A program made the position numbers and the translations under genes. The notes under the pieces were generated by a model, which saw only the letters and a list, made by a program, of their open reading frames with translations, had not been told where the DNA came from and did not search any database. Shown here piece after piece: positions 488 to 19,019 of a stretch of DNA of 40,000 nucleotides. This DNA comes from Paenibacillus algorifonticola (GTDB lineage Bacteria; Bacillota; Bacilli; Paenibacillales; Paenibacillaceae): the NCBI RefSeq assembly GCF_050481745.1, contig NZ_JBCNGR010000013.1:81214-121213 (forward strand). Reading direction: 5' to 3'. Within the stretch, counting starts at the first letter, position 1; every line of letters begins with the position of its first letter.

Positions 488-491
488 TCTA

Positions 492-1382
492 TCACATCCT
501 CTTCCATGTAATTTCTGAAAATCCACTGAGAACCCCTGAAGCTTCAGGGAAAAGGAACATATCTGCATCTGATTTTCTTAGCAATTCTATTACTCCTCCT
601 TCCTGCAAACGATACCATGCAAAAGCAGTTGATGATGAGAGCAAAAGTGGCTCTGGATTGTCTATCGAGTACTTCTCACTTAACGCTTTGCGAGCCCATC
701 CATTCTCAAATAATGGACTGAGCGAGGCAAGTTCTGATTGAATATCTGAATATCTTAACGTGTCCTTACCTACGAACAGACCTGGCAACAACTTACTTAA
801 ATGGTTGGTCGGATCCACAACCAGTCTCTTTTGCCTATTAATCGTTAACGTCCAAGTAAATCCAAGATAATTCGCCCAATACTCAAACTGTTCAAAACGT
901 GTCTTGTTTTTGCAACCTAATCGGTTGGAATCCGTTTGCTCGTCGAGAGCCAATGCTATTTGTTCCCAGGTCATTGGTGCATATGCATCTTGACTATAGA
1001 ACCACGATATAAGCAAGACCAGATCATGATTCTCATCGTTATGAAGGTCGAAAATACGACGAGTAATTGCATTCACAAGAAAATCATCCCACTCTGCTCC
1101 ATCCAACGGTACAACATCCTCTGCCAAATACAGCATGCTGCCCTCTTCCACAACAACACCCATTTTCACCATTTCATTAATCACTTTCCGAATTCGGTTT
1201 CGATGAGATACCTCCGATGAAACTTCGTTGTCCTCTTCATCCCTCACATCCCCCGCAACAGATAATGGGGATAACATTTCTTCCAATTCGCTTCGCTCAA
1301 TCGGTGAACCAAGGTGTGCGAGTAATCGCCATGTTCCACGAACTCGACTCGGATTTGCTAACGGTTCGTTTAGTACACTCAC
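492..1382 (-). CDS. Hypothetical 296-aa protein, possible winged-helix N-terminus; partner of the downstream P-loop ATPase (DpdG-like position, unverified)
   Basis: GTG start at 1382 overlaps the upstream stop (GTGA) and has SD GGAGG 7 nt upstream. I can name no catalytic motif. There is distant by-eye similarity to the 258-aa ORF at 13828..14604 (FEYWANYLGF vs MECWGLG; RLQEGGVIELLRKSDAD vs ALHQEGELKLSYMQD). Confidence 0.6.
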   Translation of the reverse strand: MSVLNEPLANPSRVRGTWRLLAHLGSPIERSELEEMLSPLSVAGDVRDEEDNEVSSEVSHRNRIRKVINEMVKMGVVVEEGSMLYLAEDVVPLDGAEWDDFLVNAITRRIFDLHNDENHDLVLLISWFYSQDAYAPMTWEQIALALDEQTDSNRLGCKNKTRFEQFEYWANYLGFTWTLTINRQKRLVVDPTNHLSKLLPGLFVGKDTLRYSDIQSELASLSPLFENGWARKALSEKYSIDNPEPLLLSSSTAFAWYRLQEGGVIELLRKSDADMFLFPEASGVLSGFSEITWKRM

Positions 1383-3904: not shown

Positions 3905-6900
3905 CGTAGTCTCCACGAAGCTCACTTCCCGATAATATTATAAAACCAACTGAATCCAAACGAACATGCGGCTTCTTAATGCCAGCCTGCATTGCTTGAT
4001 GTAAATCAGATTCGAAAGCCAAATCAATACGGTCGAATTGTCCATGAATTTGCTGCGTTTTGGCTCTTAACGCCAATTGCTGAAATTGTCGGTTTAATTC
4101 TTGGCGCATCGACTGCAGTGCTTCCTCACATGCCGTGACTACAGATGCATCTTGCATCAAAAGTCGTTCCGAACTTTCACGGGCACAGGCGCACGAGGTA
4201 TGCCACTGGTCAGGCGAGATAAATTCATCTATTACATTTAATCGTTCTTTGGTTAAATTCGTATCGTTACCAAAATCGCTTAATTTCTCAAACGGTGTTT
4301 TCAAGGCTTCTATAACATTGGAGTCATTCACCAGACTACCGCTTGGTGTTACGTTAACTGTGTATATAAAGGGCGGAAAAAACCTATCCAGTTTTCTTTG
4401 CAAAGCTTTTCTATTATATGCTTTACCGTCTATGGAAGAATAGATTGTTTCTGCTGCGGAGACGTTACCTTCGATGATATAATTGAAGCTAAACCCGAAC
4501 CACTCGAAACCTTTCTTGGGATTCCATCCCTTTACTTTGCGCCAAAATGCAAAGGTTCGCCCACGATCATCCCACTTTATGTCATCATCCAGCATTTGAA
4601 TAAAAGGATCTCCAATACGATATATTCGACAATTTTCTTGGGAGGCTGCCGTCATCCGATCATAACTGCCATACCTACTATTAATTTTCGCCATTGCAAT
4701 TGAAGTAGAGATAGGCAATAATGTTTGGCGAGTTGGGGAGTAAGTTAATTCCCCTGATTGTGCATTGGATGATTTACAAGCAAACTTCAGTGCATTAAGA
4801 ACCCACGCCTCCGTGTTCTTTTGAATACGTGCATGATCAGATTCATATGCCACCAAATTTCGAACATATCCATGCACATCGTCATAGCTCGAATCCATTT
4901 CGTCCAGTGCATTTTGTTCCTCTACTTGAATCCTTTCCTCCTCTAGGCGATCTGCGAAAGACTCCCTTACATAATGAATAAAACTTTGAGCACCCTCAGC
5001 ATAAAAGCGACCATAAATTTCTGGAAGGATTCGGTCGATCAGAAATTGCAATGACGAAATGGAGTTTTGAAACACCTTAAGTCCTTCATTCAAGAATATA
5101 TACCAAGCCTCAATCAATGATGGATGATCTGGTCCGGTGAATACATGGGTAGAAAACATTCGAGTACGTCCTAAACGATCTACACGACCTATTCTTTGCT
5201 CCATGCGGCCGGGTTGTGTAAGCAAATCAAAATGTACAATCATATCCGCAAATTGCAAATTGCGTCCTAACTCTCCTGAAGGATCGCAAACCAGTACCCA
5301 ACACTGCTCATTGTATCTAAAACGCTCAATTTCTTGTTCCACTTGGACATCGCTCAATGTTTTGAGATATGGGGCGATTGCCTCAGCTTTGTATACAGAT
5401 CTTAGATGATTAACGATGAAATTTGCCGTAGCATAGTGTCCCGCAAAAACAACAATTTTAGGTGACGTCTTTTTCTTTTTACGTGTCTGTTCCGTAACCG
5501 TATCAATGACCATGACAAGGTGATCCAACCTGTCCTCTTCTTCGGAAGAACAATCAACTGTGTGGAGCAATGACTCAAGTAACTCTCGTTCACCTGAAAA
5601 TAATGGTGTCTCGCGCAATAGTTCGGCCAATTCCGTATTGTAAAGTTCCTTGAATGAGTTGCTTATCTCTCCAGACAATCGCGCCTCTAGTACGTGCCGG
5701 AATACAGGAAGTGCAGAATTCGATAACTCCAATAAATAAAAAAATAACCTTTGATACTTAGTTGAGTGGGAAAATCCATATTCCTGCCATTCTTCCCTTT
5801 CTAAGGCCCACGACGTTTCACGCCATTCATCCATTAAATCCTGAACGGAGGCAGTTCGATTGTCAAAATCGTATTCCTCAGATACTGAGAGTTCACCGCG
5901 TTCAAGATCACGTCCGTACCTAAAAAGTTGTTTTACCGTATCACGACGATTTCGCAACATTCTCCGGTGCAGTCGGTACGTTTCCGTCAAATGATTCCTA
6001 ATAGTCCGTACGGCTGTTATACGTTTTTCTTCATCATTTTTATCCAGAGCATCTAGTAAATACTCCACATTACTGGTCATCAAAACGTCATCTGACACAA
6101 GTTCCAGCAATTTTTCAGCAGATCTACGTAAAAGAAGTGGCTTCGCATTCTCTCGTAAGGTGAACAATATTCTCCCCACATGTTGGCGAATAGAAATAAG
6201 TTTTTGAAATCTTTCAATCTCATCAAGATGGTAATGATCTGGATCTAATAAGTGAAGCATAGCTAGGAAATCTTGTTCATTATGAAGTACCGGTGTTGCA
6301 GATAACAACAACAACCCACGAGCTTGATTTGTTAACTTTTCGACCAAGTGATACAGTTCGCGCTCCTCTTCTATAAGACTCGATGCCTTCGCAGCAATGA
6401 TATGTGCTTCATCAATGATAATTAAATCCCAATCTTTCTCTTGCAGCAAGTTACTACTTGAAGACAACCTTTCAGTTGCACACCATGTAATCTGATCGGT
6501 GAATTCGTACAAATTACATTTGCTATGTAATTCTGATTGCCACTGAATCTGTAAAAATAAAGGAACCACAATGAGAACCGATGAGTTTGGATAATCCAAT
6601 AAAAACTGACGAATTATTACTCCTGCTTCAATCGTCTTTCCGAGACCCACCTCGTCTGCAAGCAAATATCGGGGGACTGGGTCTTCTGATACTCTCCGAA
6701 TAACTTCCACTTGATGGGGATACAGCGAAACAGAAGATGAAAGAAGACCTTCCATCCCACGTCCTACTTTTCGCTGATTCATCATTTCTTTTACAAAAAG
6801 GGTACGTTTACGATTAAAAAAAGCTGTCTCATGTCCCTTGTTGATGATAATATCCATGGGATCTTCAATAGGAAGTGAGCAACGGACAAACAAATTTTCT

Positions 6901-7319
6901 GAGTCAATGTAATTTGAATAGGAGTCAGGAAAGTCAACTTGATAATCTGTTCCATCAAATCCTGTGATACGGCCTATCATCCAGTGCTTTTTATTCGATT
7001 CCCAATAATAGCAACGTGTTTGAATGTCCGGCTTAACAAGTTGTATCTGGCTCAGTCCGATATTTAACCTTTTCCTATTTTCAATGGAAATGAAATACTC
7101 TACAGTTACCATTTCTTCAAACTGATCAATCACTTTTCCTATACCCATATTGTTTAGAGCGATAATGAATCTTCCAATTACATTTTCCATTAGAATAGTC
7201 CTATCCATTCCGAATTTATTGAATGCTATAATAAAAAAATTATCTCCAGAACATTTCAAGTGGTAATCCTTTCTATAAATGTTACCATAAAACCTAAGTA
7301 TAATCTTGCCAATATTCAA
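3897..7319 (-). CDS. SNF2/RapA-like helicase-ATPase with an extra ~450-aa C-terminal region
   Basis: Motifs: LLADEVGLGKTIEAG (I), IIIDEAHIIAA (II, DEAH), LLLSATPVLHNEQDF (III), GELGRNLQFADMIVHFDL and QRIGRVDRLGR (V/VI). The true start is probably an internal Met (ATG 7208 or 7190, MENVIGRF...). That would leave room for a divergent promoter region shared with the plus-strand MBL gene. Confidence 0.85.
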   Translation of the reverse strand: MNIGKIILRFYGNIYRKDYHLKCSGDNFFIIAFNKFGMDRTILMENVIGRFIIALNNMGIGKVIDQFEEMVTVEYFISIENRKRLNIGLSQIQLVKPDIQTRCYYWESNKKHWMIGRITGFDGTDYQVDFPDSYSNYIDSENLFVRCSLPIEDPMDIIINKGHETAFFNRKRTLFVKEMMNQRKVGRGMEGLLSSSVSLYPHQVEVIRRVSEDPVPRYLLADEVGLGKTIEAGVIIRQFLLDYPNSSVLIVVPLFLQIQWQSELHSKCNLYEFTDQITWCATERLSSSSNLLQEKDWDLIIIDEAHIIAAKASSLIEEERELYHLVEKLTNQARGLLLLSATPVLHNEQDFLAMLHLLDPDHYHLDEIERFQKLISIRQHVGRILFTLRENAKPLLLRRSAEKLLELVSDDVLMTSNVEYLLDALDKNDEEKRITAVRTIRNHLTETYRLHRRMLRNRRDTVKQLFRYGRDLERGELSVSEEYDFDNRTASVQDLMDEWRETSWALEREEWQEYGFSHSTKYQRLFFYLLELSNSALPVFRHVLEARLSGEISNSFKELYNTELAELLRETPLFSGERELLESLLHTVDCSSEEEDRLDHLVMVIDTVTEQTRKKKKTSPKIVVFAGHYATANFIVNHLRSVYKAEAIAPYLKTLSDVQVEQEIERFRYNEQCWVLVCDPSGELGRNLQFADMIVHFDLLTQPGRMEQRIGRVDRLGRTRMFSTHVFTGPDHPSLIEAWYIFLNEGLKVFQNSISSLQFLIDRILPEIYGRFYAEGAQSFIHYVRESFADRLEEERIQVEEQNALDEMDSSYDDVHGYVRNLVAYESDHARIQKNTEAWVLNALKFACKSSNAQSGELTYSPTRQTLLPISTSIAMAKINSRYGSYDRMTAASQENCRIYRIGDPFIQMLDDDIKWDDRGRTFAFWRKVKGWNPKKGFEWFGFSFNYIIEGNVSAAETIYSSIDGKAYNRKALQRKLDRFFPPFIYTVNVTPSGSLVNDSNVIEALKTPFEKLSDFGNDTNLTKERLNVIDEFISPDQWHTSCACARESSERLLMQDASVVTACEEALQSMRQELNRQFQQLALRAKTQQIHGQFDRIDLAFESDLHQAMQAGIKKPHVRLDSVGFIILSGSELRGDYDE

Positions 7320-7362: not shown

Positions 7363-8504
7363 ATGGATAGGTTTGTGTCTTTGAAGGTTGGACAAGGAGA
7401 TTCTTTTTATCTACAACGTGATAAATATTCAATACTTGTTGATGGTGGACTGGCGGAGAATGGTTTGGCTAAATTCTTCATGGGGGAGCGAGAAAAAATA
7501 ATCGGTAAAAAAAGATTGATGTATTAGTGTGTACTCACAATGATGCGGATCATGCCAATGGTATTCTCGGATTCTTAAAAAATGAAGAACTGTTATGTGA
7601 TGAAGTTTGGTTGCCTGGAATTTGGACAAGTAGATTAAAAGATATACTTGTTAAGCCTTCCATTTTTATTCATGAGCTAGTTCTTGATATTGATAGTAAT
7701 CATTTGGCATATGATCTGGCTACTCTCGGTGATTCTTACTCGGATAACGAGCTGCCGCTAGACAACAGAAATGAATCTGAGGAATATGTACAATTAGAAG
7801 AATTATATAGTGATCTAGAAGCATCTTTAGAAAAGAATTATGATATTCATGATGTAGCGCAATTTCATAGAGGTCCTTATCTATGGGGACTCTCCCCATC
7901 CCATATTGAATTATTTGTGGAAGCAATTAATGCCGCCAAACTTATTAAGGATATAGCAATTGCGGCTTTTCAGAAAGGTGCAAATATTAAATGGTTTGAG
8001 TATGATGAGTATCAATGCTCAGGCGGTATAGACGGTATATTAGAGCCGTTAAATTCAAAAGAAATTAGTACAGTGAAAAAACGAGGTGCTTTAGAATATC
8101 TAGCTCTTGCTATGGCAAATAGACAAAGCTTAGTATTCCATTCTCCTAGTTCTTCAAATGCACCTGCTATACTATTCTCTGCAGACTCTAATTTTGAATT
8201 TAAACAAACCATTCCTTGGTCAAACGGAATGATAATAACCGCATCACATCATGGTTCCAAAAGCAATAGTAATTGCTATCTTCGCTACGAAAATGAAAGA
8301 TCGGAGCATCTAAATTCTATTTGGATCCGTAGTGATGGTCGCTTTAGATCAAGACCTGGTCCTTGGTACTTAAAGATTCAATCTACGCAACGTTACTGCA
8401 CACGATGCAGCCCAGATTTTAAATCCTCACAAAATGTTGAGTTTACTGCTAATAAATCCGAATGGCAATCATCATCAATTGCATGTACATGTGGCCAAAA
8501 GTAA
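7363..8504 (+). pseudogene. MBL-fold (ComEC-like metallo-beta-lactamase) hydrolase gene split by a frameshift in an A7 run
   Basis: Frame A (7363..7527) reads MDRFVSLKVGQGDSFYLQRDKYSILVDGGLAENGLAKFFMGEREKIIGKKRLMY*. This is the usual MBL N-terminus (VGQGD...ILVDGG). Frame B (the ORF-track 7527..8504) continues with (I)DVLVCTHNDADHANG... and a later SHHGS motif. The two frames join at the A7 tract 7507..7513, and one extra A would give ...IGKKKIDVLVCTHNDADH. Confidence 0.7.
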
Positions 8505-8708: not shown

Positions 8709-9443
8709 TCAAACCCCTCGCTTGTTCCCCCACAACAAAGTGTGTAACTGCGGGAGAACTTTAACCTGTTTCAACTCCGATGATACCATGACTTGATTAA
8801 TCAACCACTCATACCTCTCTAGTAAAGCAAATACCAAACTTTCTCTATCAACTGTCGTTACATCGCTATTTCCGACCTGCAAAACCAGTCTCATGTGAGG
8901 ATAGCGCTTATGAACTTTTATAGCATACTGAAGATCATCTTCGTCAAAAATGACTACTTTAATACATATTTCATTCGGACTATTATTCAAGTTCGTGATA
9001 ACCCCATCTAATCTATCCCAATCGGTTATCATTCCTGAACTTGGTGGTTTTGGGGAAACCGTCAAGTCGTCAATATCCGCCATCCAATCTTGCCATCTGC
9101 TTCCTTGTGTTTCTAACCCAACTCGAATCCCCTTATCATGAAGCAAATCGACCAAATATCCAATATTCTTTATAATTGCTGGATTACCGCCAGAAATTGT
9201 TACATGCTCGAACGTGGTTCCACCAAGAGAATTCAATTCATCGTAAATCGCTTGAGGAGACAATTGTTTAATTTCATTCTTTGCAGAACCATCCCATGTA
9301 AAGGATGAGTCACACCATGAACAGGAATAGTCACAACCAGCTGTCCGAACAAACATCGTTTTTTGCCCGATTACCAGGCCTTCCCCCTGAACAGTTGGCC
9401 CGAATATTTCTAAAACCGGGATAGGATTTTCTTTGTGAGTCAA
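8709..9443 (-). CDS. queE: 7-carboxy-7-deazaguanine synthase QueE (Bacillus-type radical SAM)
   Basis: Near-colinear with B. subtilis QueE as I recall it: PVLEIFGPTVQGEGLVIGQKTMFVRTAGCDYSCSWCDSSFTWDG ... VLPQLHTLLWGNKRGV. I prefer TTG 9443 (SD GGGAGTGGA 7 nt upstream, TTGA overlap with the queD stop). The ORF-track alternative is GTG 9455. Confidence 0.93.
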   Translation of the reverse strand: MTHKENPIPVLEIFGPTVQGEGLVIGQKTMFVRTAGCDYSCSWCDSSFTWDGSAKNEIKQLSPQAIYDELNSLGGTTFEHVTISGGNPAIIKNIGYLVDLLHDKGIRVGLETQGSRWQDWMADIDDLTVSPKPPSSGMITDWDRLDGVITNLNNSPNEICIKVVIFDEDDLQYAIKVHKRYPHMRLVLQVGNSDVTTVDRESLVFALLERYEWLINQVMVSSELKQVKVLPQLHTLLWGNKRGV

Positions 9444-9931
9444 TCTGCCATCCACTCCCGTCTTGCTTCAGCATAGCTGGTTGGCGTTTCGAATAACCGG
9501 ACAAACTCAGTTTTTGCGTCCACTTCTTTTGATGAGTATTTGTCCGTACTTAGCGCCGCTTCCATCTGCTCATACAGCCAAACAACTATGTTTTCCGCAG
9601 TCGTGTTCATTAATGGCAATGTTTCATTTAGATATCTGTGGTCTAAGAATGGTTCAATTTGCTCACGCCAAATTGTTTTCAGCATGCTAAAGTCTATCGT
9701 CAGGCCAATCTCATTTGTATAGCCACTTATTCCAAAAACCACCTTATAGGTATGGCCATGTAGATTTTTGCATTTGCCTTCATAAGCATGTAAATGATGC
9801 GCGGCGTCAAAAGTGAATTCCTTACTGACCAATACTCTGCGTTGATGATATTTTAACTGATCTTCAGTAATATCCTTTCCATACTTTTGCAATGCATCTA
9901 CAATGACAAATTGCCCTGGTACTTTATTCAT
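9440..9931 (-). CDS. queD: 6-carboxy-5,6,7,8-tetrahydropterin synthase QueD
   Basis: [28 protein letters not shown] matches the QueD/PTPS signature. ATG 9931 overlaps the queC stop (ATGA). The ORF-track start at 10003 lies inside queC and is an artefactual extension. Confidence 0.9.
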
Positions 9932-10599
9932 GACATTTGCTCCGAATTTCTTGTCTGTAAAAAAGTATCCAGACCAGCTTTTCTCAACTGACAAGCTGGA
10001 CAATTACCACAACCGTCACCGATAACCCCGTTATAGCAGGTTAATGTCTTCTTACGTACAAATTCAAAAGCACCTAACTGATCAGCCATCTCCCACGTCT
10101 CTGCTTTATTAATCCACATCAACGGAGTATGAATGATAAAGTTATGATCCATCGCTAAATTTAACGTTACATTTAGAGATTTAACGAAATCATCCCTACA
10201 GTCGGGATAGCCACTGAAATCTGTTTCGCATACACCTGTTACAATATGTCGAGCTCCTACTCCTTTAGCAAAGACCGCCGCGAAACTTAAAAATAAGTGG
10301 TTTCGTCCTTCTACAAATGTACTTGGAAGTTCGCCATCATTATGAACAATTTCTACGTCATCACGCGTCAACGCATTTTGAGTTAATTGGCCGAGTAGGC
10401 TCATATCAAGTAAAGTCCATTTTACTCCTAATTCATAAGCAATTTGCTTAGCACATTCAATTTCTAATGCATGCCTTTGACCATAATTGAAGGTGACAGC
10501 CTCCACCTCATCAAATTGCTTCATTGCCCAAAACAAACAAGTTGTACTATCTTGACCGCCACTAAATACAACAACGGCTTTTTTGTTTTTTTTATCCAT
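9928..10599 (-). CDS. queC: 7-cyano-7-deazaguanine (preQ0) synthase QueC
   Basis: [19 protein letters not shown] (PP-loop), [15 protein letters not shown], and the C-terminal zinc motif [16 protein letters not shown]. Colinear with B. subtilis QueC. Confidence 0.95.
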
Positions 10600-10667: not shown

Positions 10668-13600
10668 CTATTTATCGTCTCCAACAACTAATCTAATCTC
10701 TACAACATCAAACAAGTTGGGGAATTTTTCTTTAATCTCATCCAGCAGACGCTTCCATTGTATTGGAGGAAGTGTACTATATCCATTTTCGATAAGTAAT
10801 CGGATATGCCGTTTTATGGAGGGTCTAATTTGTGGGCTTTCGTTGATTTTTTCTAGTAGGTGATAGATACTTTCAACATCTTCACAATCAAAATCATTTC
10901 TGATTACTTGAAGAAGGTGCAATTTGGTCTGCTCATGTTGAAGTTTTCTTTCGATCCGATCTCTTAGTTCATAGAAATCTATAGATTGCCATTCAGCAAT
11001 TAAGGAACTTAATTCAGCACCAATGTGTTTCTTTTTTTTCAGACGATTTACACCATTCTCCAATCTAATCAGGAGTTTCTTTATATGCTCTAAATCCCCT
11101 AGCTTAATTTGAAGATCCAGCAGATACTTCACTAAATTTCGTGGAGTAAGAGCAAGGCAGTTTTTCAAACTTTCCAATTCCTGAATAATAATTATGAAGT
11201 TAGCTTTACCCGCCTCTAATTCAGACCAGTTTACTTCGTCCTTTTTATTGATTTTCGCTTCTTCTTGTTCATAATTTGTTTGCGCGCAACTCTCAGTGAG
11301 AAGACTTTCAACTTCAAGCATCATCTCGTCAAATTGTTTACTCAACTGTCTCATCTCACTAAATAAAATAGTAGCACTTTTATATTGAGCGGCGAGTGCT
11401 TGATCATCCAATTCTTGTTCCAGCAAAGTGTAAGCAACAAAGTCTTGTTGTGTAATACTCTTCTTCTCGCTAAAAGCTTTAATTTGTTCAGCAAGTTCTA
11501 TCAATTTCAAATTATTGGAGCCAAGTAAAAAAGGAATCATGTTCATCCTTTTTTCGAGTGACTGCTTAAAGCTATCTTGAAGTAGTTTAAAGTATTTATG
11601 GTAACTTTCTTTCAATTGGGATAGAAATACCCGTAGAGTAGTATCTCCAATTTGATAGTGTTCTAAGATTTTCGATGGCACAAGATTCATAAACCAATAA
11701 TCAAATTCTTCATTCGTCAAAACCGCTTTACTAGGCGGCTGAAAAAAGTTATCACGTAACAAGTACCAATCTGAATAACAATCCTCAAGAAGAGCTAATA
11801 ATTCTGTTCGGAATGGAGAATATTCAATTACATTTGAGGCCCAAGATGATTTGCTGTATATTTGAGCATTTTGAACCCAGTATTTCATCCCGTACACAAA
11901 TACAGGAAGATTCAACCCAAGAGCCTGTTCAAGAGAATTAAGCCATTCATCATGGATTGACTCTGCTTGATGTATCCATTTAGCAATTTCATATTCATTG
12001 GAATTTTTCTGAAACATCCTTACCTTTTCTGAATACTTCATGGTTTGAAAGTTGGCAATTTGAATAGCAATAAATCCTCTGCTGACGCTTATTGTAGACT
12101 CATCCTTGTTATTCTGGAGTGTAATCGGATACCTTGTTCGATTCACAACTTCATTTCGCTGAATGGATGATGAAGTTTTGGATGTGAATGAGCGGGACAT
12201 ATGAATTCCCTTTACAGCATCATGCACCAATGCAGCCACCCCCGATCTAACCGGCAATAATAATTCTTCATTTACATCTCTTCCTTCTACCCAATCTCTA
12301 ACCACTGCCTTTTCATTGAAGCCATTATTACTATCTTTTTTCGGCTCATCAAGTAATTGCTGCTCATCTCTTAAGCTACTTCCAACACTATTTAGTTTCA
12401 CAGTGATTTGATTATCCTTATATCCAAAGTACCTTAATACAGGTTCTGAAATTGTAATCTTCTCCGCTTCTTCAGAGGCATACCATTCTGCGAGAGTTTT
12501 GATAAAAACATCCGAATGCTCAGCGAACATCTCCCTCCTTATTATAGGAAGTATTCTACTAATATCTTTCTTACCTCTTAGAAAAAAGCGAATAACTTCT
12601 TTACTATTCAAAATCATGTAACGTAATTTCCCTTTTCCCATTGGAATTGCATCATACGTTCTCCTTAACATATGGCTATTAAATGGAAGCAACTGAACTT
12701 CAATATCATTTAATTTAGATTCAATCTCACTTGATTCCGTGGTAATACTTGAACATTGGTCGTAGTACGGACACTCAGGAGAGCATTTAAAGCCTTGTGT
12801 TGCTTTCAACTGTGTAAGGTACTTAGCCATATAAGGAATTACTTGTCCACGATCTAGGTTGAAAAAGTCTTTCCCTGATTCGTCAGATAGCCATAACTTT
12901 TTTACCCGGTCATTTATGGTGTCAAGATTTTGGATTCTTTGTGTAAGACTGAATCCTTTTTCTGTATCCTGAACCGCGCCAGGCGTTAGACCAATTACTA
13001 CATCCCAATTCCCCTCTTCTAATGTAATAAGTTGATCCAATATATTGGTTGCGTAAATATTAACCGATTGAACAAGATCGTCAATGAGAAGCAATGGACG
13101 GATACCCTTGCTTTTTATCTGCTGGGATAATTGTTTAAACAGGGTTCCAATGTCCCGTCCTTCAAACAGAAAATGGTCCAGTTTCCGAGAAAGTGTTTGT
13201 CGAAATGTTGCATACTCCAGGGGGATATTAACAGTCGTGTTAACAAGTAACGATTCGAATTGCTCACGATGTAGAACTTCTAGTGGTTTTTTGATTCTTC
13301 CTCGTTTAACTTGAGAAGTAAATTCTACAATATTCTTCTCAATTATTGATCTCAACAATAGTGCTGCTGGAACAATTTCCTCATCGGATTCTAGCGATTC
13401 GGCAAGTGCCGTCCAGACCATTTGGTTAACAAGCGTAATAGGCTTTTTGAGTAATAGCCCCCACTTATCTTCGTCAATACAAACATCTAAAGACAAATTT
13501 AATGCGTCTAAACATTTTTTGATTAGTGTCTGGGGGTTTAACTCTGTCCGTGAAATTCGTATCACCGGTCGTTCAGATACTTCCACTAACCATTTATCTT

Positions 13601-13859
13601 TTATCCAACGAAGCAGTTCAGATTTCCCTGATCCCGTCGAGCCAAATACTAAATAAACCCTGTTGCCATCGGAATCAACTTCTTTGAGTTCTTCCAGCAA
13701 TTCGCCTTCCGTAACCTCAGCGATCAGATGACTGTCATTAAATCTATGCATTACTTGAGGGAAATGGGTTTTTCTAAAATACTCAGGTGATTGGTCGTAA
13801 CGCTCGTCTGCAGTTCCTACTAAAAGTTTAAGCGAATTTTTGTTGAGACAAGGCATCAT
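10668..13859 (-). CDS. Large (1063 aa) P-loop NTPase with a long helical, coiled-coil-like C-terminal half
   Basis: Walker A is VFGSTGSGKSE (residues ~72-80) and Walker B-like is RPLLLIDDLVQ (~255-263). The start ATGATG at 13859 has SD GAGAGGGGA 10 nt upstream. It overlaps the upstream ORF by 32 nt. It is paralogous to the partial ORF at 1..487. Confidence 0.8.
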   Translation of the reverse strand: MMPCLNKNSLKLLVGTADERYDQSPEYFRKTHFPQVMHRFNDSHLIAEVTEGELLEELKEVDSDGNRVYLVFGSTGSGKSELLRWIKDKWLVEVSERPVIRISRTELNPQTLIKKCLDALNLSLDVCIDEDKWGLLLKKPITLVNQMVWTALAESLESDEEIVPAALLLRSIIEKNIVEFTSQVKRGRIKKPLEVLHREQFESLLVNTTVNIPLEYATFRQTLSRKLDHFLFEGRDIGTLFKQLSQQIKSKGIRPLLLIDDLVQSVNIYATNILDQLITLEEGNWDVVIGLTPGAVQDTEKGFSLTQRIQNLDTINDRVKKLWLSDESGKDFFNLDRGQVIPYMAKYLTQLKATQGFKCSPECPYYDQCSSITTESSEIESKLNDIEVQLLPFNSHMLRRTYDAIPMGKGKLRYMILNSKEVIRFFLRGKKDISRILPIIRREMFAEHSDVFIKTLAEWYASEEAEKITISEPVLRYFGYKDNQITVKLNSVGSSLRDEQQLLDEPKKDSNNGFNEKAVVRDWVEGRDVNEELLLPVRSGVAALVHDAVKGIHMSRSFTSKTSSSIQRNEVVNRTRYPITLQNNKDESTISVSRGFIAIQIANFQTMKYSEKVRMFQKNSNEYEIAKWIHQAESIHDEWLNSLEQALGLNLPVFVYGMKYWVQNAQIYSKSSWASNVIEYSPFRTELLALLEDCYSDWYLLRDNFFQPPSKAVLTNEEFDYWFMNLVPSKILEHYQIGDTTLRVFLSQLKESYHKYFKLLQDSFKQSLEKRMNMIPFLLGSNNLKLIELAEQIKAFSEKKSITQQDFVAYTLLEQELDDQALAAQYKSATILFSEMRQLSKQFDEMMLEVESLLTESCAQTNYEQEEAKINKKDEVNWSELEAGKANFIIIIQELESLKNCLALTPRNLVKYLLDLQIKLGDLEHIKKLLIRLENGVNRLKKKKHIGAELSSLIAEWQSIDFYELRDRIERKLQHEQTKLHLLQVIRNDFDCEDVESIYHLLEKINESPQIRPSIKRHIRLLIENGYSTLPPIQWKRLLDEIKEKFPNLFDVVEIRLVVGDDK

Positions 13860-14604
13860 TTAAATCACATCCCCTCTCTACCTTTATCCAATTAAATTCG
13901 TTTTTAGGTCCATATGATTTATAAGGTAAATCTTGCATGTAACTTAGTTTCAACTCTCCTTCTTGATGTAATGCCATTAAAGAAAAGATAACCCCTCTGT
14001 AGATGTTCCCTTCAGTTGTTAGGCATGGTATAACCGGATCAATTATCTTTTCACAAAATGGATGCAATCCTCCCTCCCATGTCTCATTCCTCTTAATGAT
14101 ACTTTTCATTAACGAAAGCTGTGGAAGTGCATAGAAGCCTGAGTAAATACGTCTACCCAATCCCCAGCATTCCATCATTCGCTTCCACGCATTCACTTTC
14201 TCTTGCCCAACTAGTGTTTTCTTTAATTGGCTATTGATTTGGTAGTGAATATTACTCAAAAACAATTTATCCGGCTTTACAAATAACTGTTCAAATAGGG
14301 AAGCAAATACTTTATCAAGTGAATCGCTAGGTATATTTTCAGAATTTGAAAGTTCCCTCAATTTTAAAAAAACCTCTTTGTTGCACCATGGCTTGTCCTG
14401 TAGTACAAAATATTGTGATTTGTCTTTATATATAAACTGTAAATCCTCTAATACGATCAAACTACATTCAATTAACGATGTGATGTCCCCGCTATCAACA
14501 TGCTGAAATCTTGTTTTTAACTTCTCTACATCCAGTCCAGGATTAATTCTTAAATTTTCATAAATCACTTCAATTTCCGGTCCGTAGCACATTTGAAACA
14601 ACAT
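13828..14604 (-). CDS. Hypothetical 258-aa protein; partner of the 1063-aa ATPase and distant paralogue of the ORF at 492..1382
   Basis: Strong SD AAGAGGAGGAG lies 5 nt before ATG 14604. It overlaps both neighbours, by 35 nt upstream and 32 nt downstream. No recognisable catalytic motif. Confidence 0.65.
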   Translation of the reverse strand: MLFQMCYGPEIEVIYENLRINPGLDVEKLKTRFQHVDSGDITSLIECSLIVLEDLQFIYKDKSQYFVLQDKPWCNKEVFLKLRELSNSENIPSDSLDKVFASLFEQLFVKPDKLFLSNIHYQINSQLKKTLVGQEKVNAWKRMMECWGLGRRIYSGFYALPQLSLMKSIIKRNETWEGGLHPFCEKIIDPVIPCLTTEGNIYRGVIFSLMALHQEGELKLSYMQDLPYKSYGPKNEFNWIKVERGCDLNDALSQQKFA

Positions 14605-15502
14605 GCTCGCTCCTCCTCTTATTATTTTCTAAAATATCGTTAAATGTTCTAAGTAAGTGGTAATAGTTATGGATTGATCTTAACTTCATATATTCTCTTG
14701 GAGATGGGACTAAGATCTGCTTTGCGTCATTTTCACATACAGGGCATTCACAATTAAGTGGATTTTCCAATCGTGGACTTGTGGGTTTAGCTCGCGATTC
14801 TGAGAGAAAAAAGGTTCTAAATGGTCTGCTATAGAACACTTGAAAGAACGCTGCCGCCATTGTTGGTCGTGTTGAATCAAATGAACTTACGCCAATATCA
14901 ACCATTGCACTAAGTTGGGGAATTCCTGTTACTCCAAATACATGCAGGTTTGAAGGCCCTACAACATCTGCTGCCCTTCTGATCATTTCAATTTGCTGCG
15001 TCTGATGTCTAAAAAGTAACGATCCAATTCCAAATTTCTTATACCCCATCTTGATCAACTCATAAGCTGAAAACTCAATACTAGCTTGGTCATAACCTTG
15101 AATGACTCCCATTGCTTGAACAGATTTCGGAAGATTATATTTATGAAAAATATTGAAATACTCATAAGCATTGAATAGCGTTCTTTCTATAGCCATGAAA
15201 CGTTCAGATAAAGAGGACTTATTTAACAGTGGTTCATCAAAATGAACCATTTGAACATTTGTTTTTTTTTCGCAATCTTCTAAGATTGAGAGCTGAATAT
15301 CAAAAACTTCTTTTAGTGGAGGCCTAATTTTTTGTTTAACATAAAACACTGATCCACAGTCTAGTATTAGCTTGCTAGGTTTATTTTTATACCTTTTTAC
15401 TCCTCCTCTATTGTCCGGTATAGCACTAATTAAAACCGGACATTGAGGAAAGTAATCACAAAATACTGCATCACTGTGTGACCAACCAATATAAAATTCC
15501 AT
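14570..15502 (-). CDS. Second, compact TGT-superfamily (DpdA-like) protein
   Basis: Matches to the 684-aa ORF: ILDCGSVFY (cf. MGDCGAFSY), GVIQGYD...MGYKKFGIGSL (cf. GIVQGWD...LGYDYIALGGL), GVSSFDSTRPT (cf. E. coli Tgt GVDMFDCVMPTR). The zinc motif is CECPVCEN...HNYYH. I prefer ATG 15502 (MEFYIGW..., SD GAAGGAG 8 nt upstream). The ORF-track start at 15580 has no usable SD and sits upstream of a candidate promoter. Confidence 0.75.
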   Translation of the reverse strand: MEFYIGWSHSDAVFCDYFPQCPVLISAIPDNRGGVKRYKNKPSKLILDCGSVFYVKQKIRPPLKEVFDIQLSILEDCEKKTNVQMVHFDEPLLNKSSLSERFMAIERTLFNAYEYFNIFHKYNLPKSVQAMGVIQGYDQASIEFSAYELIKMGYKKFGIGSLLFRHQTQQIEMIRRAADVVGPSNLHVFGVTGIPQLSAMVDIGVSSFDSTRPTMAAAFFQVFYSRPFRTFFLSESRAKPTSPRLENPLNCECPVCENDAKQILVPSPREYMKLRSIHNYYHLLRTFNDILENNKRRSEHVVSNVLRTGN

Positions 15503-15553
15503 ATCCTCATCTCCTTCTACAATAAAAATTACGTGATCATACGTGATATTTTT

Positions 15554-15562
15554 ATTGTAGCA
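15554..15562 (-). promoter_or_regulatory. Candidate internal promoter (extended -10 TGCTACAAT) for the TGT2 / ATPase / queCDE genes
   Basis: The minus strand reads TGCTACAAT just downstream of the terminator at 15593..15620. It is followed by a tandem ATCACGTA repeat on the minus strand (plus-strand TACGTGAT at 15530..15537 and 15540..15547), then the SD of TGT2. Confidence 0.4.
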
Positions 15563-15592
15563 CATCTCACCAGCACTCATCTACTCTTTGAA

Positions 15593-15620
15593 TAAAAAAA
15601 AGAAGCCATCAGGCTTCTTT
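15593..15620 (-). terminator. Rho-independent terminator at the end of the 264-aa ORF, inside the gene array
   Basis: On the minus strand: AAAGAAGCC-TGAT-GGCTTCTTT, a 9-bp stem and 4-nt loop that contains the TGA stop, followed by TTTTTTATT. Confidence 0.65.
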
Positions 15621-16403
15621 TATCCATTGTCTCCATATTTCATATATTAAACCGCGTTGTGCATCATTAAATTTAAAATTTCCTTTATTAACAAGTAGAA
15701 CTGGATTGTCTCTGTCAAAAAACTGACCTTTCCAATTCTCATAATTGAATTCCTCTGAGAGTAGTGGCCGCGGCAGATTGGTTAACTGAGAATCCTCAGT
15801 CCATTGCTCCATGAAATATCTAATATAGCAATACCAAGCAATGGCTGAGTCGGCAATGGATTTTTTTCGAAACTGTTTTCTCTGTGCTACAGGAAGATAC
15901 CCTAGTTCAGGATAATCACTCATTATAGAGTCAACATATTTAATCAAATCTTTAGCTAATCGAGGGCATAAACTACGTTCAACTCGATACCTTTGAAAAT
16001 CCTTAAAAATATCATACAGCGATCTAAAAGTCATTAATTTAGTGGAGTTGCTACTTATTTTCTCCCCCTTTTCAATCAACCGTTCGAAACGCTTATAAGA
16101 CATTAACTGATGCATACAGTAACTCGGAAAGTGTTGGGTTTCAGATACAATTAGAACGACGTATTCATCGCTCATACTGCCGCTGGGCAGTTTATAAGTA
16201 AACCGGGGATTCGTCACTTGTAACTCATTGTTTATTAAACTTAACACAGTATCATAATTTACTAAAATGACCTCTTCGCCAATTACATCAGACTGAATTA
16301 CAGGAAAACCCCAGTCTTTAATAACCCCTAATGGCAGTACTGTAAAATAAACGTCATCATTCTTTCTAGTTAAATTGCTTACGTTTTCAAAAGTAAAAAC
16401 CAT
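15609..16403 (-). CDS. Hypothetical 264-aa protein located between the two TGT-like genes
   Basis: SD GGGGGA lies 6 nt before ATG 16403. Codon usage is coherent and AT-rich, like the neighbours. I recognise no motif (no P-loop, no DGQHR). Confidence 0.6.
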   Translation of the reverse strand: MVFTFENVSNLTRKNDDVYFTVLPLGVIKDWGFPVIQSDVIGEEVILVNYDTVLSLINNELQVTNPRFTYKLPSGSMSDEYVVLIVSETQHFPSYCMHQLMSYKRFERLIEKGEKISSNSTKLMTFRSLYDIFKDFQRYRVERSLCPRLAKDLIKYVDSIMSDYPELGYLPVAQRKQFRKKSIADSAIAWYCYIRYFMEQWTEDSQLTNLPRPLLSEEFNYENWKGQFFDRDNPVLLVNKGNFKFNDAQRGLIYEIWRQWIKEA

Positions 16404-16460: not shown

Positions 16461-18497
16461 CTATTTATCCCATCGTTTTTTTAATTCCTGGATCTGAGTG
16501 TAGTAGACATGGGTATTGTGAAACCCTCTCCGTCTGTTTCTATTATTACCCCTAAATACAATCACATCAATTCCAATTTCCCTGCATATATTACAACCAC
16601 ATTGTTCCCATGGACGTTCAGACAAAACCTCTCTATAAAGATCCTCATGAACTTCGCGCTTTTCCCCAAGTATTTTATCATACTCCAGTATAGCTTCAAG
16701 TGTGGGTTCTAGTTCTCTTGTTCCCGCACTGAAATTCCTAAGAGCACTTAATGCCTCCTGTTCAAGCCTTCTATACTCCGCAAACTCAATTTCATCACTA
16801 TTCTGCAACATTTTTTTCACTCTTCCAGATGTTTCTTTCGCTTCTGGGATTCTAATCGCTGTGTAATGTTTACCACTCAAGGAGTGATAATTATGCCCTG
16901 TTCCTAACCACGCTCTTCTCAACGGAGAAGAAGAGTCAAATGATGTTACACCTAATTTATGAAAAGACTCCATTGTTCTCACATCTCGCGCAACACCGAA
17001 CAAGTGCATCCGAAACGTAGGGCTTGGAATAATAGGAGATATTTCTTTTAGAATCTCATATATTTTCTCAGATTGTTCTCTAGCTAAACCACCTAGGGCA
17101 ATATAGTCATAACCTAATTCAATAAGATGCTCTACTGCTCTTCGGAAAGAAGGCGGGTCCCATCCTTGGACTATACCTATAGGATGGAACTGATAATTCC
17201 TGGTTTCTCTGTCCTCCCTATACATGCGTATAAATTCTTCCGCCATAGTAAGGGTTAGTTCATAACGCTGATTTCTAATATTTTCGTCTCTCTGGAAGGG
17301 ACCCACTATTAGATGGTCAATTGATACCCCATAATCAAAACCCAAGTTGTGGTAGTAATCCATAATCTCTTGGGTCGTATACGGCGGTACTTCTTTATCA
17401 ATATAACTAAAGGCACCACAATCCCCCATAATCGGGTATTCCCTAGGTAGTCGATAAAAATCATGTAACCCCATATCTTTTATCATCTGATTTTTTTGCT
17501 TAGTAGCATTATCAATATTAACTTTAGAAACAAGCAGTCCATCAAACTGAGGTCTTTCAAAAATCTGATGAGCGTACACATCATTTTCTAATGGATTTCT
17601 GTTTTTTTCTGAAAAATCAGCCATAAAATCATAGTGTGGATCGACTCTATCATCATTCTCTGGAAGATAAAATCTGGGTTCCTCAATGCAATTTATAGCT
17701 ACTAACTCATCTGGTACAGGAAACATTTCATTATAGAACTGTAATAAATCTTCTTTTTCAGATGCGTCACTAAATAACTCAGGTTGTTTTGTTGAAGCAA
17801 TTGAATCCAAAATAAACTCTCTAATCTGATCAGGATGATATTTTATTGTTCTCCACTTCTGTTCAATGTTATCTGTAATAATATTCCTCAGTAAGTGTGC
17901 AAAAAGATAACCTTTGATTCCTATCAAACCATATTTAAATGTTTTAGCTTCTTTTTCTCCAATAGTTAATACATGATAATCGTCCCAGTTTAGAATTCGA
18001 GAACGACTAGATGCTCCTGCGAAAAAGATCGCTTTTTGATTACTTTGCAACTTTAATGGCCACTCCACCGCTTGCAAATATTTGTCTCCAAGTAAGAAGA
18101 ATACAAGATCATAATCAGCAATTTTTTTTTGTAGATTTTGTGTGACTTCAAGTTGACGCGCCCACTTTTTTATAGTCTGCGAGTCCATTGTATTAAAAGT
18201 CACTTCATACGGTACAATTTGCGCATCTTCATTCAAAAGACCATAACCCGCTGAAATAATGCAAAGATCAATTTTCCCACCTTGTTTCCGGTATTCTTTA
18301 ATACCACTCATTAGCGCAAGGTGTTGACTCCCTGTATACATTTCATCAGCACGTTCTCTGAATTCCAACAATTCTGCTTCTCTTTGTTTTAATATTTTTT
18401 TATTCTTGAAATCATCAAATACAAGTTGATTTATTGGTTTATGTAACTTCTCTCCAGTACAAGAAGTGACAACAAGAATACGTTTTGACACAAACAT
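16461..18497 (-). CDS. DpdA-like TGT-superfamily transglycosylase fused to an N-terminal ~280-aa domain
   Basis: The C-terminal ~400 aa read RFYLPENDDRVDPHYDF..., MGDCGAFSY, GIVQGWD, GVTSFDSSSPLRRA, with zinc motif CGCNIC...GFHNTH. The N-terminal part reads ILVVTSCTGEK...CIISAGYGLLNEDAQIVPYEVTF. That pattern reminds me of YaaA/DUF328-type proteins ([21 protein letters not shown]), but this is weak recall. The start is probably ATG 18497 or GTG 18491, not the ORF-track GTG 18515. Confidence 0.8.
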   Translation of the reverse strand: MFVSKRILVVTSCTGEKLHKPINQLVFDDFKNKKILKQREAELLEFRERADEMYTGSQHLALMSGIKEYRKQGGKIDLCIISAGYGLLNEDAQIVPYEVTFNTMDSQTIKKWARQLEVTQNLQKKIADYDLVFFLLGDKYLQAVEWPLKLQSNQKAIFFAGASSRSRILNWDDYHVLTIGEKEAKTFKYGLIGIKGYLFAHLLRNIITDNIEQKWRTIKYHPDQIREFILDSIASTKQPELFSDASEKEDLLQFYNEMFPVPDELVAINCIEEPRFYLPENDDRVDPHYDFMADFSEKNRNPLENDVYAHQIFERPQFDGLLVSKVNIDNATKQKNQMIKDMGLHDFYRLPREYPIMGDCGAFSYIDKEVPPYTTQEIMDYYHNLGFDYGVSIDHLIVGPFQRDENIRNQRYELTLTMAEEFIRMYREDRETRNYQFHPIGIVQGWDPPSFRRAVEHLIELGYDYIALGGLAREQSEKIYEILKEISPIIPSPTFRMHLFGVARDVRTMESFHKLGVTSFDSSSPLRRAWLGTGHNYHSLSGKHYTAIRIPEAKETSGRVKKMLQNSDEIEFAEYRRLEQEALSALRNFSAGTRELEPTLEAILEYDKILGEKREVHEDLYREVLSERPWEQCGCNICREIGIDVIVFRGNNRNRRRGFHNTHVYYTQIQELKKRWDK

Positions 18498-18512
18498 CCC
18501 ATCCCTTATTAA

Positions 18513-18545
18513 CACAATATAAAATAGGGCGTTCCCGCCCTATTT
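18513..18545 (-). terminator. Terminator/attenuator-like hairpin between the transporter gene and the DpdA-like gene
   Basis: On the minus strand: AAATAGGGCG-GGAA-CGCCCTATTT, a 10-bp stem with a GNRA-type loop. It lies directly after the TAG stop at 18546 and is followed by TATATTGTG, so the U-tract is only moderate. Confidence 0.5.
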
Positions 18546-19019
18546 CTAAACAGCTTTTGCATGTTTGAAAAAAACTTTTTTAACAATGATTGCAGCAAAT
18601 ATTTGAACCAATGTCTTAACAATGATTTGGCCAACAATCGCCAGAAATACAGCATTCCATGGAAGAATATTCGCTCCCAATGGGGATAGACCCACAACAA
18701 CAAAGATAATACTGTCTAGTATTCCTCCAACAATCCCACTGTATGCTACCCTCATATGAAAAGGTAATTTAAGGCGCGAATAGATTTCGGTATCAGTGGT
18801 CTCAGATACTGCAAACGTAATAATTGAGGCAAACACAATCCAAAGTGTGTCCCCTAGTAAATATGATGTTAATGCTGATAAAACCATGGCTAATAGAATA
18901 AGTAAATAGGTATTCCGCCGACCAACAAAATTTTGCACAAAATCACGGAATATAAATGTTGCCCCTATTATAAAAGTCCCTGCCGGGATAATAAAGGGTC
19001 CAATAAAAAACGGCGCCAC
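18546..19019 (-). CDS. VUT/YhhQ-family (queuosine-precursor) transporter; the 5' end lacks a canonical start and is possibly degraded
   Basis: Multi-TM protein with FRDF..., ...DSIIF... segments typical of DUF165/VUT. The frame stays open and hydrophobic for 20 more codons upstream (YLTIVAYLLAIVSSNVVTAG, cf. the E. coli YhhQ ITSSN segment as I recall it). That stretch has no ATG, GTG or TTG. See the finding for this region. Confidence 0.6.
   Translation of the reverse strand: MAPFFIGPFIIPAGTFIIGATFIFRDFVQNFVGRRNTYLLILLAMVLSALTSYLLGDTLWIVFASIITFAVSETTDTEIYSRLKLPFHMRVAYSGIVGGILDSIIFVVVGLSPLGANILPWNAVFLAIVGQIIVKTLVQIFAAIIVKKVFFKHAKAV

Follow-up and report, generated by a model that had tools for sequence, protein, structure and literature searches.

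A 40,000-nt window of the Paenibacillus algorifonticola genome (NCBI RefSeq assembly GCF_050481745.1, contig NZ_JBCNGR010000013.1, positions 81,214 to 121,213 of the forward strand) carries an anti-phage Dpd island with two divergent genes of the tRNA-guanine transglycosylase (TGT) superfamily, namely a canonical DpdA fused to a DpdC-like domain and a smaller protein named here TGT2. TGT2 belongs to a family distinct from canonical DpdA and is accompanied, in Bacillota and Chloroflexota alike, by a tandem winged-helix protein (G') and by a P-loop NTPase related to DpdH (H'). We propose, with a probability of about one half, that TGT2, G' and H' form an ATP-driven module that exchanges guanine for 7-cyano-7-deazaguanine (preQ0) in DNA, replacing the function of DpdA and DpdB and marking the host DNA. 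Among bacterial restriction-modification systems, Dpd is to our knowledge alone in being built on 7-deazaguanine, and the targeting and powering of its transglycosylase are, as far as we know, understood for no more than the DpdA/DpdB pair. The elements on which the proposal is built are the following, with positions in the window:

14570..15502, minus strand: TGT2, 310 aa, minimal TGT/DpdA-like transglycosylase
13828..14604, minus strand: G' (orf258), 258 aa, tandem winged-helix protein, probable distant relative of DpdG
10668..13859, minus strand: H' (ATP1063), 1063 aa, P-loop NTPase, divergent DpdH paralogue, BrxC-like
15503..15621, minus strand: control region of the TGT2 operon, delimited by direct sequence reading and a hairpin scan

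The 310-aa open reading frame (ORF) of TGT2 starts at the ATG at 15502 and ends at 14570 on the minus strand, as proposed in an earlier inspection of the letters and ORF translations of this stretch (the sequence-only reading), and the family alignment places the start at the same position in all homologues; the ribosome-binding site, AAGGAG (15516-15511), precedes the ATG by 8 nt. TGT2 belongs to the TGT superfamily: with 58.2 bits, it exceeded the gathering score of the Pfam TGT model (PF01702; 26.3), its residues 108-316 covering model positions 128-335. It scored 74.4 bits with the NCBIfam DpdA model (NF041059), under the cutoff of 200 and over residues 65-243 only, and remained far under the models of the tRNA-modifying enzymes, with 28.4 bits for bacterial Tgt (TIGR00430, cutoff 306.75) and 26.1 bits for archaeal TgtA (TIGR00432, cutoff 350). 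The best match among PDB sequences was Salmonella Montevideo DpdA (PDB 7UI4; E 1e-6). By these profile and sequence scores, the TGT family closest to TGT2 is DpdA and not tRNA Tgt.

Salmonella DpdA uses D95 as acid/base, D130 and H181-G182 for base recognition, G206-G207 as the loop facing the 7-substituent and D256 as nucleophile (PMC10164549). The corresponding residues of TGT2 are D48, D89, Q135-G136, G160-S161 and D209, with C251, C253, C256 and H278 as zinc ligands (CxCxxC...H) and H187 also listed as a key residue. The catalytic, base-pocket and zinc residues were invariant in 36-38 of the 38 full-length members, spanning 30-97% identity, the sole exception being D48, which is absent in two loci where the gene is visibly broken. 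Both the catalytic Asp and the zinc site, whose loss the sequence-only reading had named as the sign of a decayed copy, are therefore retained; the alignment indicates an intact active site, from which catalysis is predicted. Because the DpdA domain of the window likewise has Gln-Gly at the position of the Salmonella His-Gly pair, the Gly-Ser found in place of Gly-Gly is the one consistent difference in the pocket of TGT2. An AlphaFold2 model built from 19 family sequences (pLDDT, predicted local distance difference test, 91.9) was matched by Foldseek to the TGT structures of Z. mobilis and T. maritima (E ~1e-12, template modelling (TM) score 0.73-0.77), and predicts a (beta/alpha)8 (TIM) barrel with a zinc subdomain. 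TGT2 contains neither a PUA domain nor a tRNA-binding extension. Its C-terminal tail (..VSNVLR..) is encoded by the 35-nt overlap (14570-14604) with the start of G' (MLFQMCYGPE), and conservation of this tail probably reflects the overlapping gene rather than a function of TGT2.

The likeness of TGT2 to the C-terminal part of the neighbouring 684-aa protein, initially recognized by eye, was reproduced by BLASTP (26% identity over 180 aa, E 2e-12), and the motif pairs originally listed (DCG, VIQG/IVQG, GIGS/LGGL, FGV and SFDS) all fell inside the alignment. The CxCxxC...H pair was weak in that comparison and was reproduced against Salmonella DpdA 7UI4. A deficit of about 38 residues between the N-terminal FY motif and the catalytic-type Asp had also been claimed, and this was incorrect, as the two Asp lie 161 residues apart in TGT2 and 162 apart in the 684-aa protein. 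The shortening is instead found at two other places: TGT2 has ~37 residues fewer on the N-terminal side of the first Asp, and 42 residues versus 111 (~69 fewer) from the nucleophile Asp to CxCxxC. The latter segment is the DpdA-specific insertion Ins8, 128 residues long in Salmonella DpdA, where it lies against the DNA (PMC10164549). TGT2 was compared with DpdA for the NF041059 cutoff, for Ins8 and for partnership with DpdB; it differs in each and is therefore placed outside the DpdA equivalog family as now defined.

On the searches performed, the TGT2 family is a separate, small and old clade. A word-indexed search retrieved ~89 close relatives of ~300 aa in Bacillales, and a profile run against 1.84 billion representative proteins returned 41 clusters at E < 1e-30, all of ~300 aa and aligned over their whole length; in the same search, canonical DpdA, as proteins of 400-430 aa or as fusions of 650-800 aa, appeared only from ~E 1e-24 and as split matches. 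Scanning one genome per species yielded 39 loci containing TGT2 (designated by L numbers), distributed among Paenibacillus, Bacillus, Neobacillus, Laceyella, Thermoactinomyces, Clostridia (Dethiobacter, Desulfocucumis, Desulfosporosinus) and several lineages of Chloroflexota. The idea that TGT2 is a shortened copy that arose within this gene array was abandoned, the clade being common to Bacillota and Chloroflexota. In two Chloroflexales metagenome-assembled genomes (L037 9605-10750; L038 9417-11074), TGT2 and the adjacent DpdA genes are fragmented or frameshifted, which could be due to decay of the islands or to assembly errors.

Public records label TGT2 as 'queuine tRNA-ribosyltransferase', and the 42 residues separating D209 from the first Cys resemble the ~38 residues between nucleophile and Cys in bacterial Tgt (Z. 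mobilis numbering), both of which would suit a redundant or decaying duplicate, or an island-borne tRNA-guanine transglycosylase without a specific role in Dpd. We consider this explanation very improbable. A recent duplicate or decaying copy was ruled out by the deep conservation of the family and by its active site, invariant from 97% down to 30% identity; identity with tRNA Tgt was ruled out by the model scores given above (28 bits versus a cutoff of 307 for Tgt, 26 versus 350 for TgtA) and by the strict synteny with G' and H' inside Dpd islands, and the lack of a PUA domain or tRNA-binding extension is likewise at odds with it. A pattern scan of IMG/VR viral contigs found no relatives of TGT2, which also speaks against this explanation, and a phage origin was rejected on the same result.

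Island proteins were mapped onto the 39 loci, each viewed within +/-10 kb. TGT2, G' and H' were adjacent in 31 of them, across Bacillales, Clostridia and Chloroflexota, with a co-directional arrangement in Bacillales and a divergent one in Clostridia and Chloroflexota. The 8 remaining loci mostly lie on short or broken contigs or represent a variant of Chloroflexales in which an H'-like gene is found at a distance of 1-3 kb. In the window, TGT2 and G' share 35 nt, and G' and H' share 32 nt. The identity of TGT2 to the window copy co-varies across loci with that of G' (r = 0.99), H' (0.97) and DpdA (0.96).

An H' profile of 35 sequences aligned with the canonical DpdH of the same island with a probability of 98.5% (hhalign; E 1.7e-15, 484 columns), over a region that contains the Walker A and Walker B motifs and a Cys cluster. 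The homology between H' and DpdH extends to the NCBIfam DpdH model at the N-terminus only, with 28 bits, far under the equivalog cutoff of 450, and H' is therefore a paralogue and not DpdH itself. Profile comparison thus identifies H' as a clear paralogue of DpdH/BrxC, DpdH/I having been equated with BrxC of BREX systems in a recent preprint. Walker A (GxxGSGKSE) and Walker B (LLxDDLVQ) were kept in 34 H' sequences, and H' looks like an active ATPase; its comparison with PDB sequences gave nothing useful. The relationship of G' was more difficult to establish. All of its 80 homologues are annotated as 'hypothetical', and no match was obtained in Pfam. The NCBIfam DpdG model (NF041064) was matched by 5 of 18 G' members, colinear at both ends, with a best E of 2e-6. 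The AlphaFold2 model of G' (pLDDT 88.4) displays three units resembling helix-turn-helix (HTH) or winged HTH (wHTH) domains arranged in a string. Foldseek matched it weakly to the tandem winged-helix proteins SelB, RPC62 and Stn1, and a PDB profile search gave generic tandem winged-helix similarity only. G' is a probable relative of DpdG, the kinship being weak and unproven. The island contains two pairs of the G-H type, the canonical DpdG-DpdH in the restriction arm (1-1382, minus strand) and the divergent pair next to TGT2 (10668-14604, minus strand).

The low-GC island (~35-45% G+C) extends from position 1 to ~19.8 kb of the window, in a genome of ~52% G+C, and nearly all of its genes are on the minus strand. 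Gene identities were obtained from scans with hidden Markov models (HMM) of Pfam, NCBIfam and PADLOC; a public contig identical to the window (L040) was used to read past its edge, and a related island (L041) could be seen in full. The other genes of the island are listed here in order of transcription, in which TGT2, G' and H' follow orf264 and precede queC:

18546..19019, minus strand: Vut_1/YhhQ-like queuosine-precursor transporter, 157 aa (Pfam Vut_1 58 bits, TIGR00697 39 bits)
16461..18515, minus strand: DpdC-DpdA fusion, 684 aa (NCBIfam NF041059, Pfam DUF6884, PADLOC)
15609..16403, minus strand: orf264, 264 aa, weak DndB/DGQHR-domain similarity
9928-10599, minus strand: queC, preQ0 synthesis (ORF translation and Pfam QueC on L040)
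9440-10003, minus strand: queD, preQ0 synthesis (ORF translation and Pfam PTPS on L040)
8709-9455, minus strand: queE, preQ0 synthesis (ORF translation and Pfam Radical_SAM on L040)
7527-8504, plus strand: ORF of 325 aa resembling metallo-beta-lactamase (MBL) fold proteins, between queE and dpdE
3897-7319, minus strand: dpdE, canonical restriction-arm gene (NCBIfam DpdE 931 bits)
1379-3925, minus strand: dpdF, canonical restriction-arm gene (NCBIfam DpdF 858 bits)
492-1382, minus strand: dpdG, canonical restriction-arm gene (NCBIfam DpdG 114 bits)
1-487, minus strand: start of dpdH, which leaves the window (716 bits for the DpdH continuation on L040)

At island level, the window holds a Dpd system, with DpdC-DpdA, DpdE, DpdF, DpdG, the start of DpdH, QueCDE and the YhhQ-like transporter. 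Residues 281-677 of the 684-aa protein constitute a full-length canonical DpdA (NF041059, 453 bits, cutoff 200), and its N-terminal part is DUF6884/DpdC-like (Pfam DUF6884, 51 bits; PADLOC DpdA 423 bits together with DpdC matches). The fusion was found again in most related loci with 38-93% identity, and Chloroflexales have a plain ~400-aa DpdA instead. The 325-aa ORF gave only faint matches to the MBL fold (LmuA/Avs1a N-terminus). The transporter of 157 aa compares with ~200-220 aa in L020/L021, and the short form is kept in Paenibacillus loci.

The gene order of L041 is H'-QueCDE-HTH-DpdE-F-G-H-I-J-K-D, and together with the upstream DpdC-DpdA this island comprises all canonical dpd genes (A/C, D, E, F, G, H, I, J, K) apart from dpdB. 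The ParB-type DGQ(Q/H)R motif of DpdB/DndB was absent from ORFs of at least 150 aa in the window and in 40 other loci, bar a GmrSD-like protein in L034, the absence of dpdB being a negative at the level of motifs and HMMs only. Salmonella DpdA cannot insert preQ0 into DNA without the ATPase of the ParB-like DpdB (PMC10164549), and a second, ATPase-coupled transglycosylase is therefore meaningful in an island without dpdB. Of all features of this subtype, the combination of a missing DpdB and a new ATPase attached to the second transglycosylase is the most informative.

The gene upstream of TGT2, orf264, is confined to Bacillales. No family was matched by the window protein itself in the HMM scans, and comparison with PDB sequences gave nothing useful. 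In its family, 6 of 9 members matched TIGR03187 (DGQHR domain) and 3 of 9 matched TIGR03233 (DndB), with a best E of 3.8e-5; residues ~88-170 fall on model positions 160-245, i.e. the part of DndB/DGQHR-domain proteins that follows the motif, the DGQ(H/Q)R motif being missing. These partial matches make orf264 a probable DNA-binding regulator, which may be a degenerate DpdB/DndB kept for regulation. Its suggested role as a partner to be co-folded with the two transglycosylases was not borne out, since the fixed neighbours of TGT2 are G' and H', and orf264 looks like a regulator of DndB type.

A terminator-like hairpin (15621-15598; 10-bp stem followed by T8) straddles the stop codon of orf264, so that the two divergent TGT/DpdA-type genes of the island are in separate transcription units, in agreement with the sequence-only reading. 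Upstream of TGT2 on the minus strand, we identified an extended -10 element, TGcTACAAT, at 15562-15554 and a tandem repeat, TCACGTA-N3-TCACGTA, at 15546-15530, which occurs once in the window. The -10 box and the TCACGTA repeat were kept in all 15 loci with orf264 (including L001-L010, L013 and L017-L019, around 9930-9990), even where the other spacer sequence had diverged, and also in L018, though TGT2 there is 5 kb from DpdC-DpdA. Both were absent in the 3 Bacillales loci without orf264, making the co-occurrence of operator and orf264 perfect. DndB is a promoter-binding regulator that recognizes TACG-N10-CGTA motifs (PMC4507180). The TCACGTA repeat is likely the operator of a DndB-like regulator, and orf264 is probably the DndB-like repressor of the TGT2-G'-H' operon. 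In Bacillales, TGT2-G'-H' thus appears as a separate operon with a terminator of its own, a putative promoter and a putative operator. The islands of Clostridia and Chloroflexota have instead a gene for an XRE-type HTH protein in the space that separates G' from TGT2, which suggests that these versions are also under transcriptional control. XRE HTH genes beside TGT2 or G'/H' were observed in L021 (5360-5776), L022 (4561-5046), L023 (9512-10045 and 10977-11372) and L034 (9505-9945), and as 99-aa ORFs in L031/L033.

Three observations favour placing the triad on the modification side of the island. Firstly, the block Vut-DpdCA-264-TGT2-G'-H'-QueCDE is 93-99% identical in L001, where DpdE/F are only 38-41% identical, and therefore moves independently of the restriction genes. 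Secondly, the restriction set attached to this block is of three kinds, namely DpdE-F-G-H..., DpdJ-K-D and a pair resembling AddAB, composed of a 955-aa protein with a Cas4-like Cys-rich C-terminus and a UvrD-like helicase. Thirdly, in L020, L022, L029 and L036, TGT2 lies with G'/H' between DpdD/K/J and QueC or YhhQ, with no DpdA/DpdC within ~10 kb, in a slot that is the normal position of dpdABC. Two DpdE/F variants were seen that are ~38-41% identical to each other (L001 versus L003, 16.9-20.9 kb), and further variants of the restriction module occur in L006 (15012-20925), L019 (16954-20929) and L023 (160-3452); in L006, an MBL-fold gene similar to the 325-aa ORF of the window follows the AddAB-like pair. 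A 170-aa fragment of an Nth/MutY-like helix-hairpin-helix glycosylase was found in Desulfocucumis (L022 3881-4393, minus strand) between QueC and H', roughly at the place of DpdC-DpdA.

The main rival explanation is that the triad is a duplicated surveillance complex of DpdG-DpdH type with a TGT as reading head, on the sensing or restriction side. The TGT head would flip the target guanine into its pocket, read whether it is G or 7-deazaguanine and then license the helicase/nuclease arm or, in an alternative version, would act in base-excision restriction by removing G from foreign DNA that carries no modification. H' as a paralogue of DpdH and G' as a weak relative of DpdG derive from genes whose canonical forms are both members of the restriction operon, and the triad directly abuts DpdD/K/J in L010, L011, L016, L021, L022, L029 and L034. 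The invariant G160-S161 at the 7-substituent loop could tune the discrimination, and base-excision restriction enzymes are reported (PMC10273834). However, the triad is inherited with the modification block and swapped independently of the restriction genes, TGT2 adjoins genes for preQ0 supply, and the whole chemistry set including the nucleophile Asp is kept across phyla; moreover, a TGT that met foreign DNA while preQ0 was available would modify and not damage it. We therefore regard a sensing or restriction role as rather unlikely, yet as the strongest competitor of the exchange module.

TGT2 and DpdA are within 10 kb of each other in 28 of the 39 loci. This proximity, the correlated divergence of the two (r = 0.96) and their arrangement as divergent neighbours in Chloroflexales would be consistent with TGT2 as an obligate partner of the DpdA domain of the fusion, in a heterodimer similar to QTRT1/QTRT2 that extends DNA recognition or stabilizes the enzyme. 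Such a heterodimer is unlikely, since Salmonella DpdA is a monomer (PMC10164549), every catalytic residue is kept in TGT2, a terminator and a separate promoter lie between the two genes in the window, and the genes that constantly accompany TGT2 are G' and H' and not DpdA, which is missing within ~10 kb in the four loci mentioned above. With the catalytic Asp and the zinc site retained, the division of labour between the two copies suggested by the sequence-only reading remains the right kind of idea, with its heterodimer version now weakened and its sensor version standing as the rival of the exchange module proposed here.

In the proposed exchange module, TGT2, which is devoid of the DNA-contacting Ins8, would rely on G' for DNA binding and targeting, a role that presupposes a physical interaction of TGT2 with G' and H'. 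H' would provide ATP-driven opening of the DNA and thereby access to the target base, and TGT2 would swap guanine for preQ0, supplied by the adjacent QueCDE or imported by the YhhQ-like transporter, thus acting as the writer that marks host DNA. The DpdC domain of the fusion would then hydrolyse the inserted preQ0 nucleotide (dPreQ0) to the 7-amido-7-deazaguanine nucleotide (dADG), and its DpdA domain may modify additional sites or offer the base to DpdC. The Bacillales operon would probably be repressed by the DndB-like orf264. A more specific version, which we advance tentatively and with less confidence than the module itself, is an autonomous base-exchange machine in which an ATPase of DpdH/BrxC type and the tandem wHTH protein load a minimal TGT onto DNA and the two TGTs split the work. 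Where both are present, TGT2 could write dPreQ0 and the fusion convert or extend it, or the roles of writer and reader could be divided between them.

Several points weigh against the exchange module. In Salmonella, DpdG and DpdH belong to the restriction operon dpdD-K and not to the modification genes (PMC10164549), and because G' and H' are kin to these proteins, their descent speaks just as much for a role in sensing or restriction. The homology of G' to DpdG is itself weak: hhalign against the island's own DpdG gave a probability of 9%, which is not significant, and the HMM matches were confined to the 5 of 18 members mentioned above. The active site is complete in the DpdA domain of the fusion as well, and sequence alone cannot tell which of the two is the writer. 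The loci apparently lacking DpdA (L020, L022, L029 and L036) were viewed within +/-10 kb, and a DpdA could lie beyond the restriction genes. Finally, with G160-S161 in place of Gly-Gly at the contact to the 7-substituent, the incoming base may not be preQ0.

If the proposal is true, the DpdB-less subtype would be a two-TGT epigenetic system that offers a testable handle on the enigmatic function of DpdG/DpdH and links Dpd mechanistically to the logic of BREX and Ssp, in which an enzyme, a wHTH protein and a BrxC ATPase act together. The analysis also corrects a systematic misannotation, with TGT2 recorded under the tRNA-ribosyltransferase name and its partners as hypothetical proteins. A GATOR-GC survey demanding both dpdA and dpdB recovered only 11 Bacillota islands (PMC12235509); since dpdB was required, DpdB-less islands such as these would be missed by design. 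No description of the TGT2 clade or of a two-TGT Dpd subtype was found in the literature searched (second DpdA, DUF6884, DpdG/DpdH, Dpd in Bacillota). What is new is the TGT2 clade and the two-TGT, DpdB-less subtype, whereas the Dpd system itself and the TGT superfamily are known.

Among known systems, TGT2 shares with bacterial DpdA (7UI4) the TIM barrel, the Asp pair (DCG acid/base and FDS nucleophile), the base-pocket Asp, the zinc motif CxCxxC...H and the location of the gene in a dpd island beside preQ0 genes. It differs in being ~100 aa shorter, without most of Ins8 (42 residues versus 111-128) and ~37 N-terminal residues, in having Gly-Ser where DpdA has Gly-Gly at the 7-substituent loop, and in its partners, an ATPase resembling DpdH and a protein with tandem winged helices in place of the ParB-like DpdB. 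The eukaryotic QTRT1/QTRT2 enzyme, of which QTRT2 is the non-catalytic subunit, similarly employs two divergent TGT-family proteins for one pathway, but TGT2 keeps all catalytic residues and its substrate is presumably DNA. The phage enzymes DpdA1-4 are also short TGT-like DNA transglycosylases, of 250-320 aa, and were matched to TGT2 by Foldseek with E of 1e-8 to 1e-11; the identity in these structural matches is only 13-17%, the IMG/VR scan gave no viral relative of TGT2, and the phage enzymes function without partners of the G'/H' type.

At the level of the whole system, the island resembles canonical DpdA-DpdB-DpdC in combining a transglycosylase with a separate ATPase, on which it would depend, in having the DpdC activity, here fused to DpdA, and in the adjacency of dpdD-K. 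It departs from it in the lack of DpdB, the presence of two transglycosylases and of an extra ATPase of DpdH/BrxC type and, in Bacillales only, a DndB-like 264-aa remnant without DGQ(H/Q)R. In Ssp (SspB/C/D) and type-4 BREX, a modifying enzyme is found together with a tripartite wHTH protein (DUF4007/BrxA-like) and a BrxC-like ATPase, and in BRC systems a TGT is paired with a BrxC-like ATPase, without DpdB or DpdC (PMC12839542). The TGT2 triad shares with these systems the architecture of enzyme, multi-wHTH protein and BrxC-like ATPase; it differs in that no PglZ, HerA/FtsK, GNAT or STAND genes accompany it, in that H' groups with DpdH, and in that the module resides within a full Dpd island.

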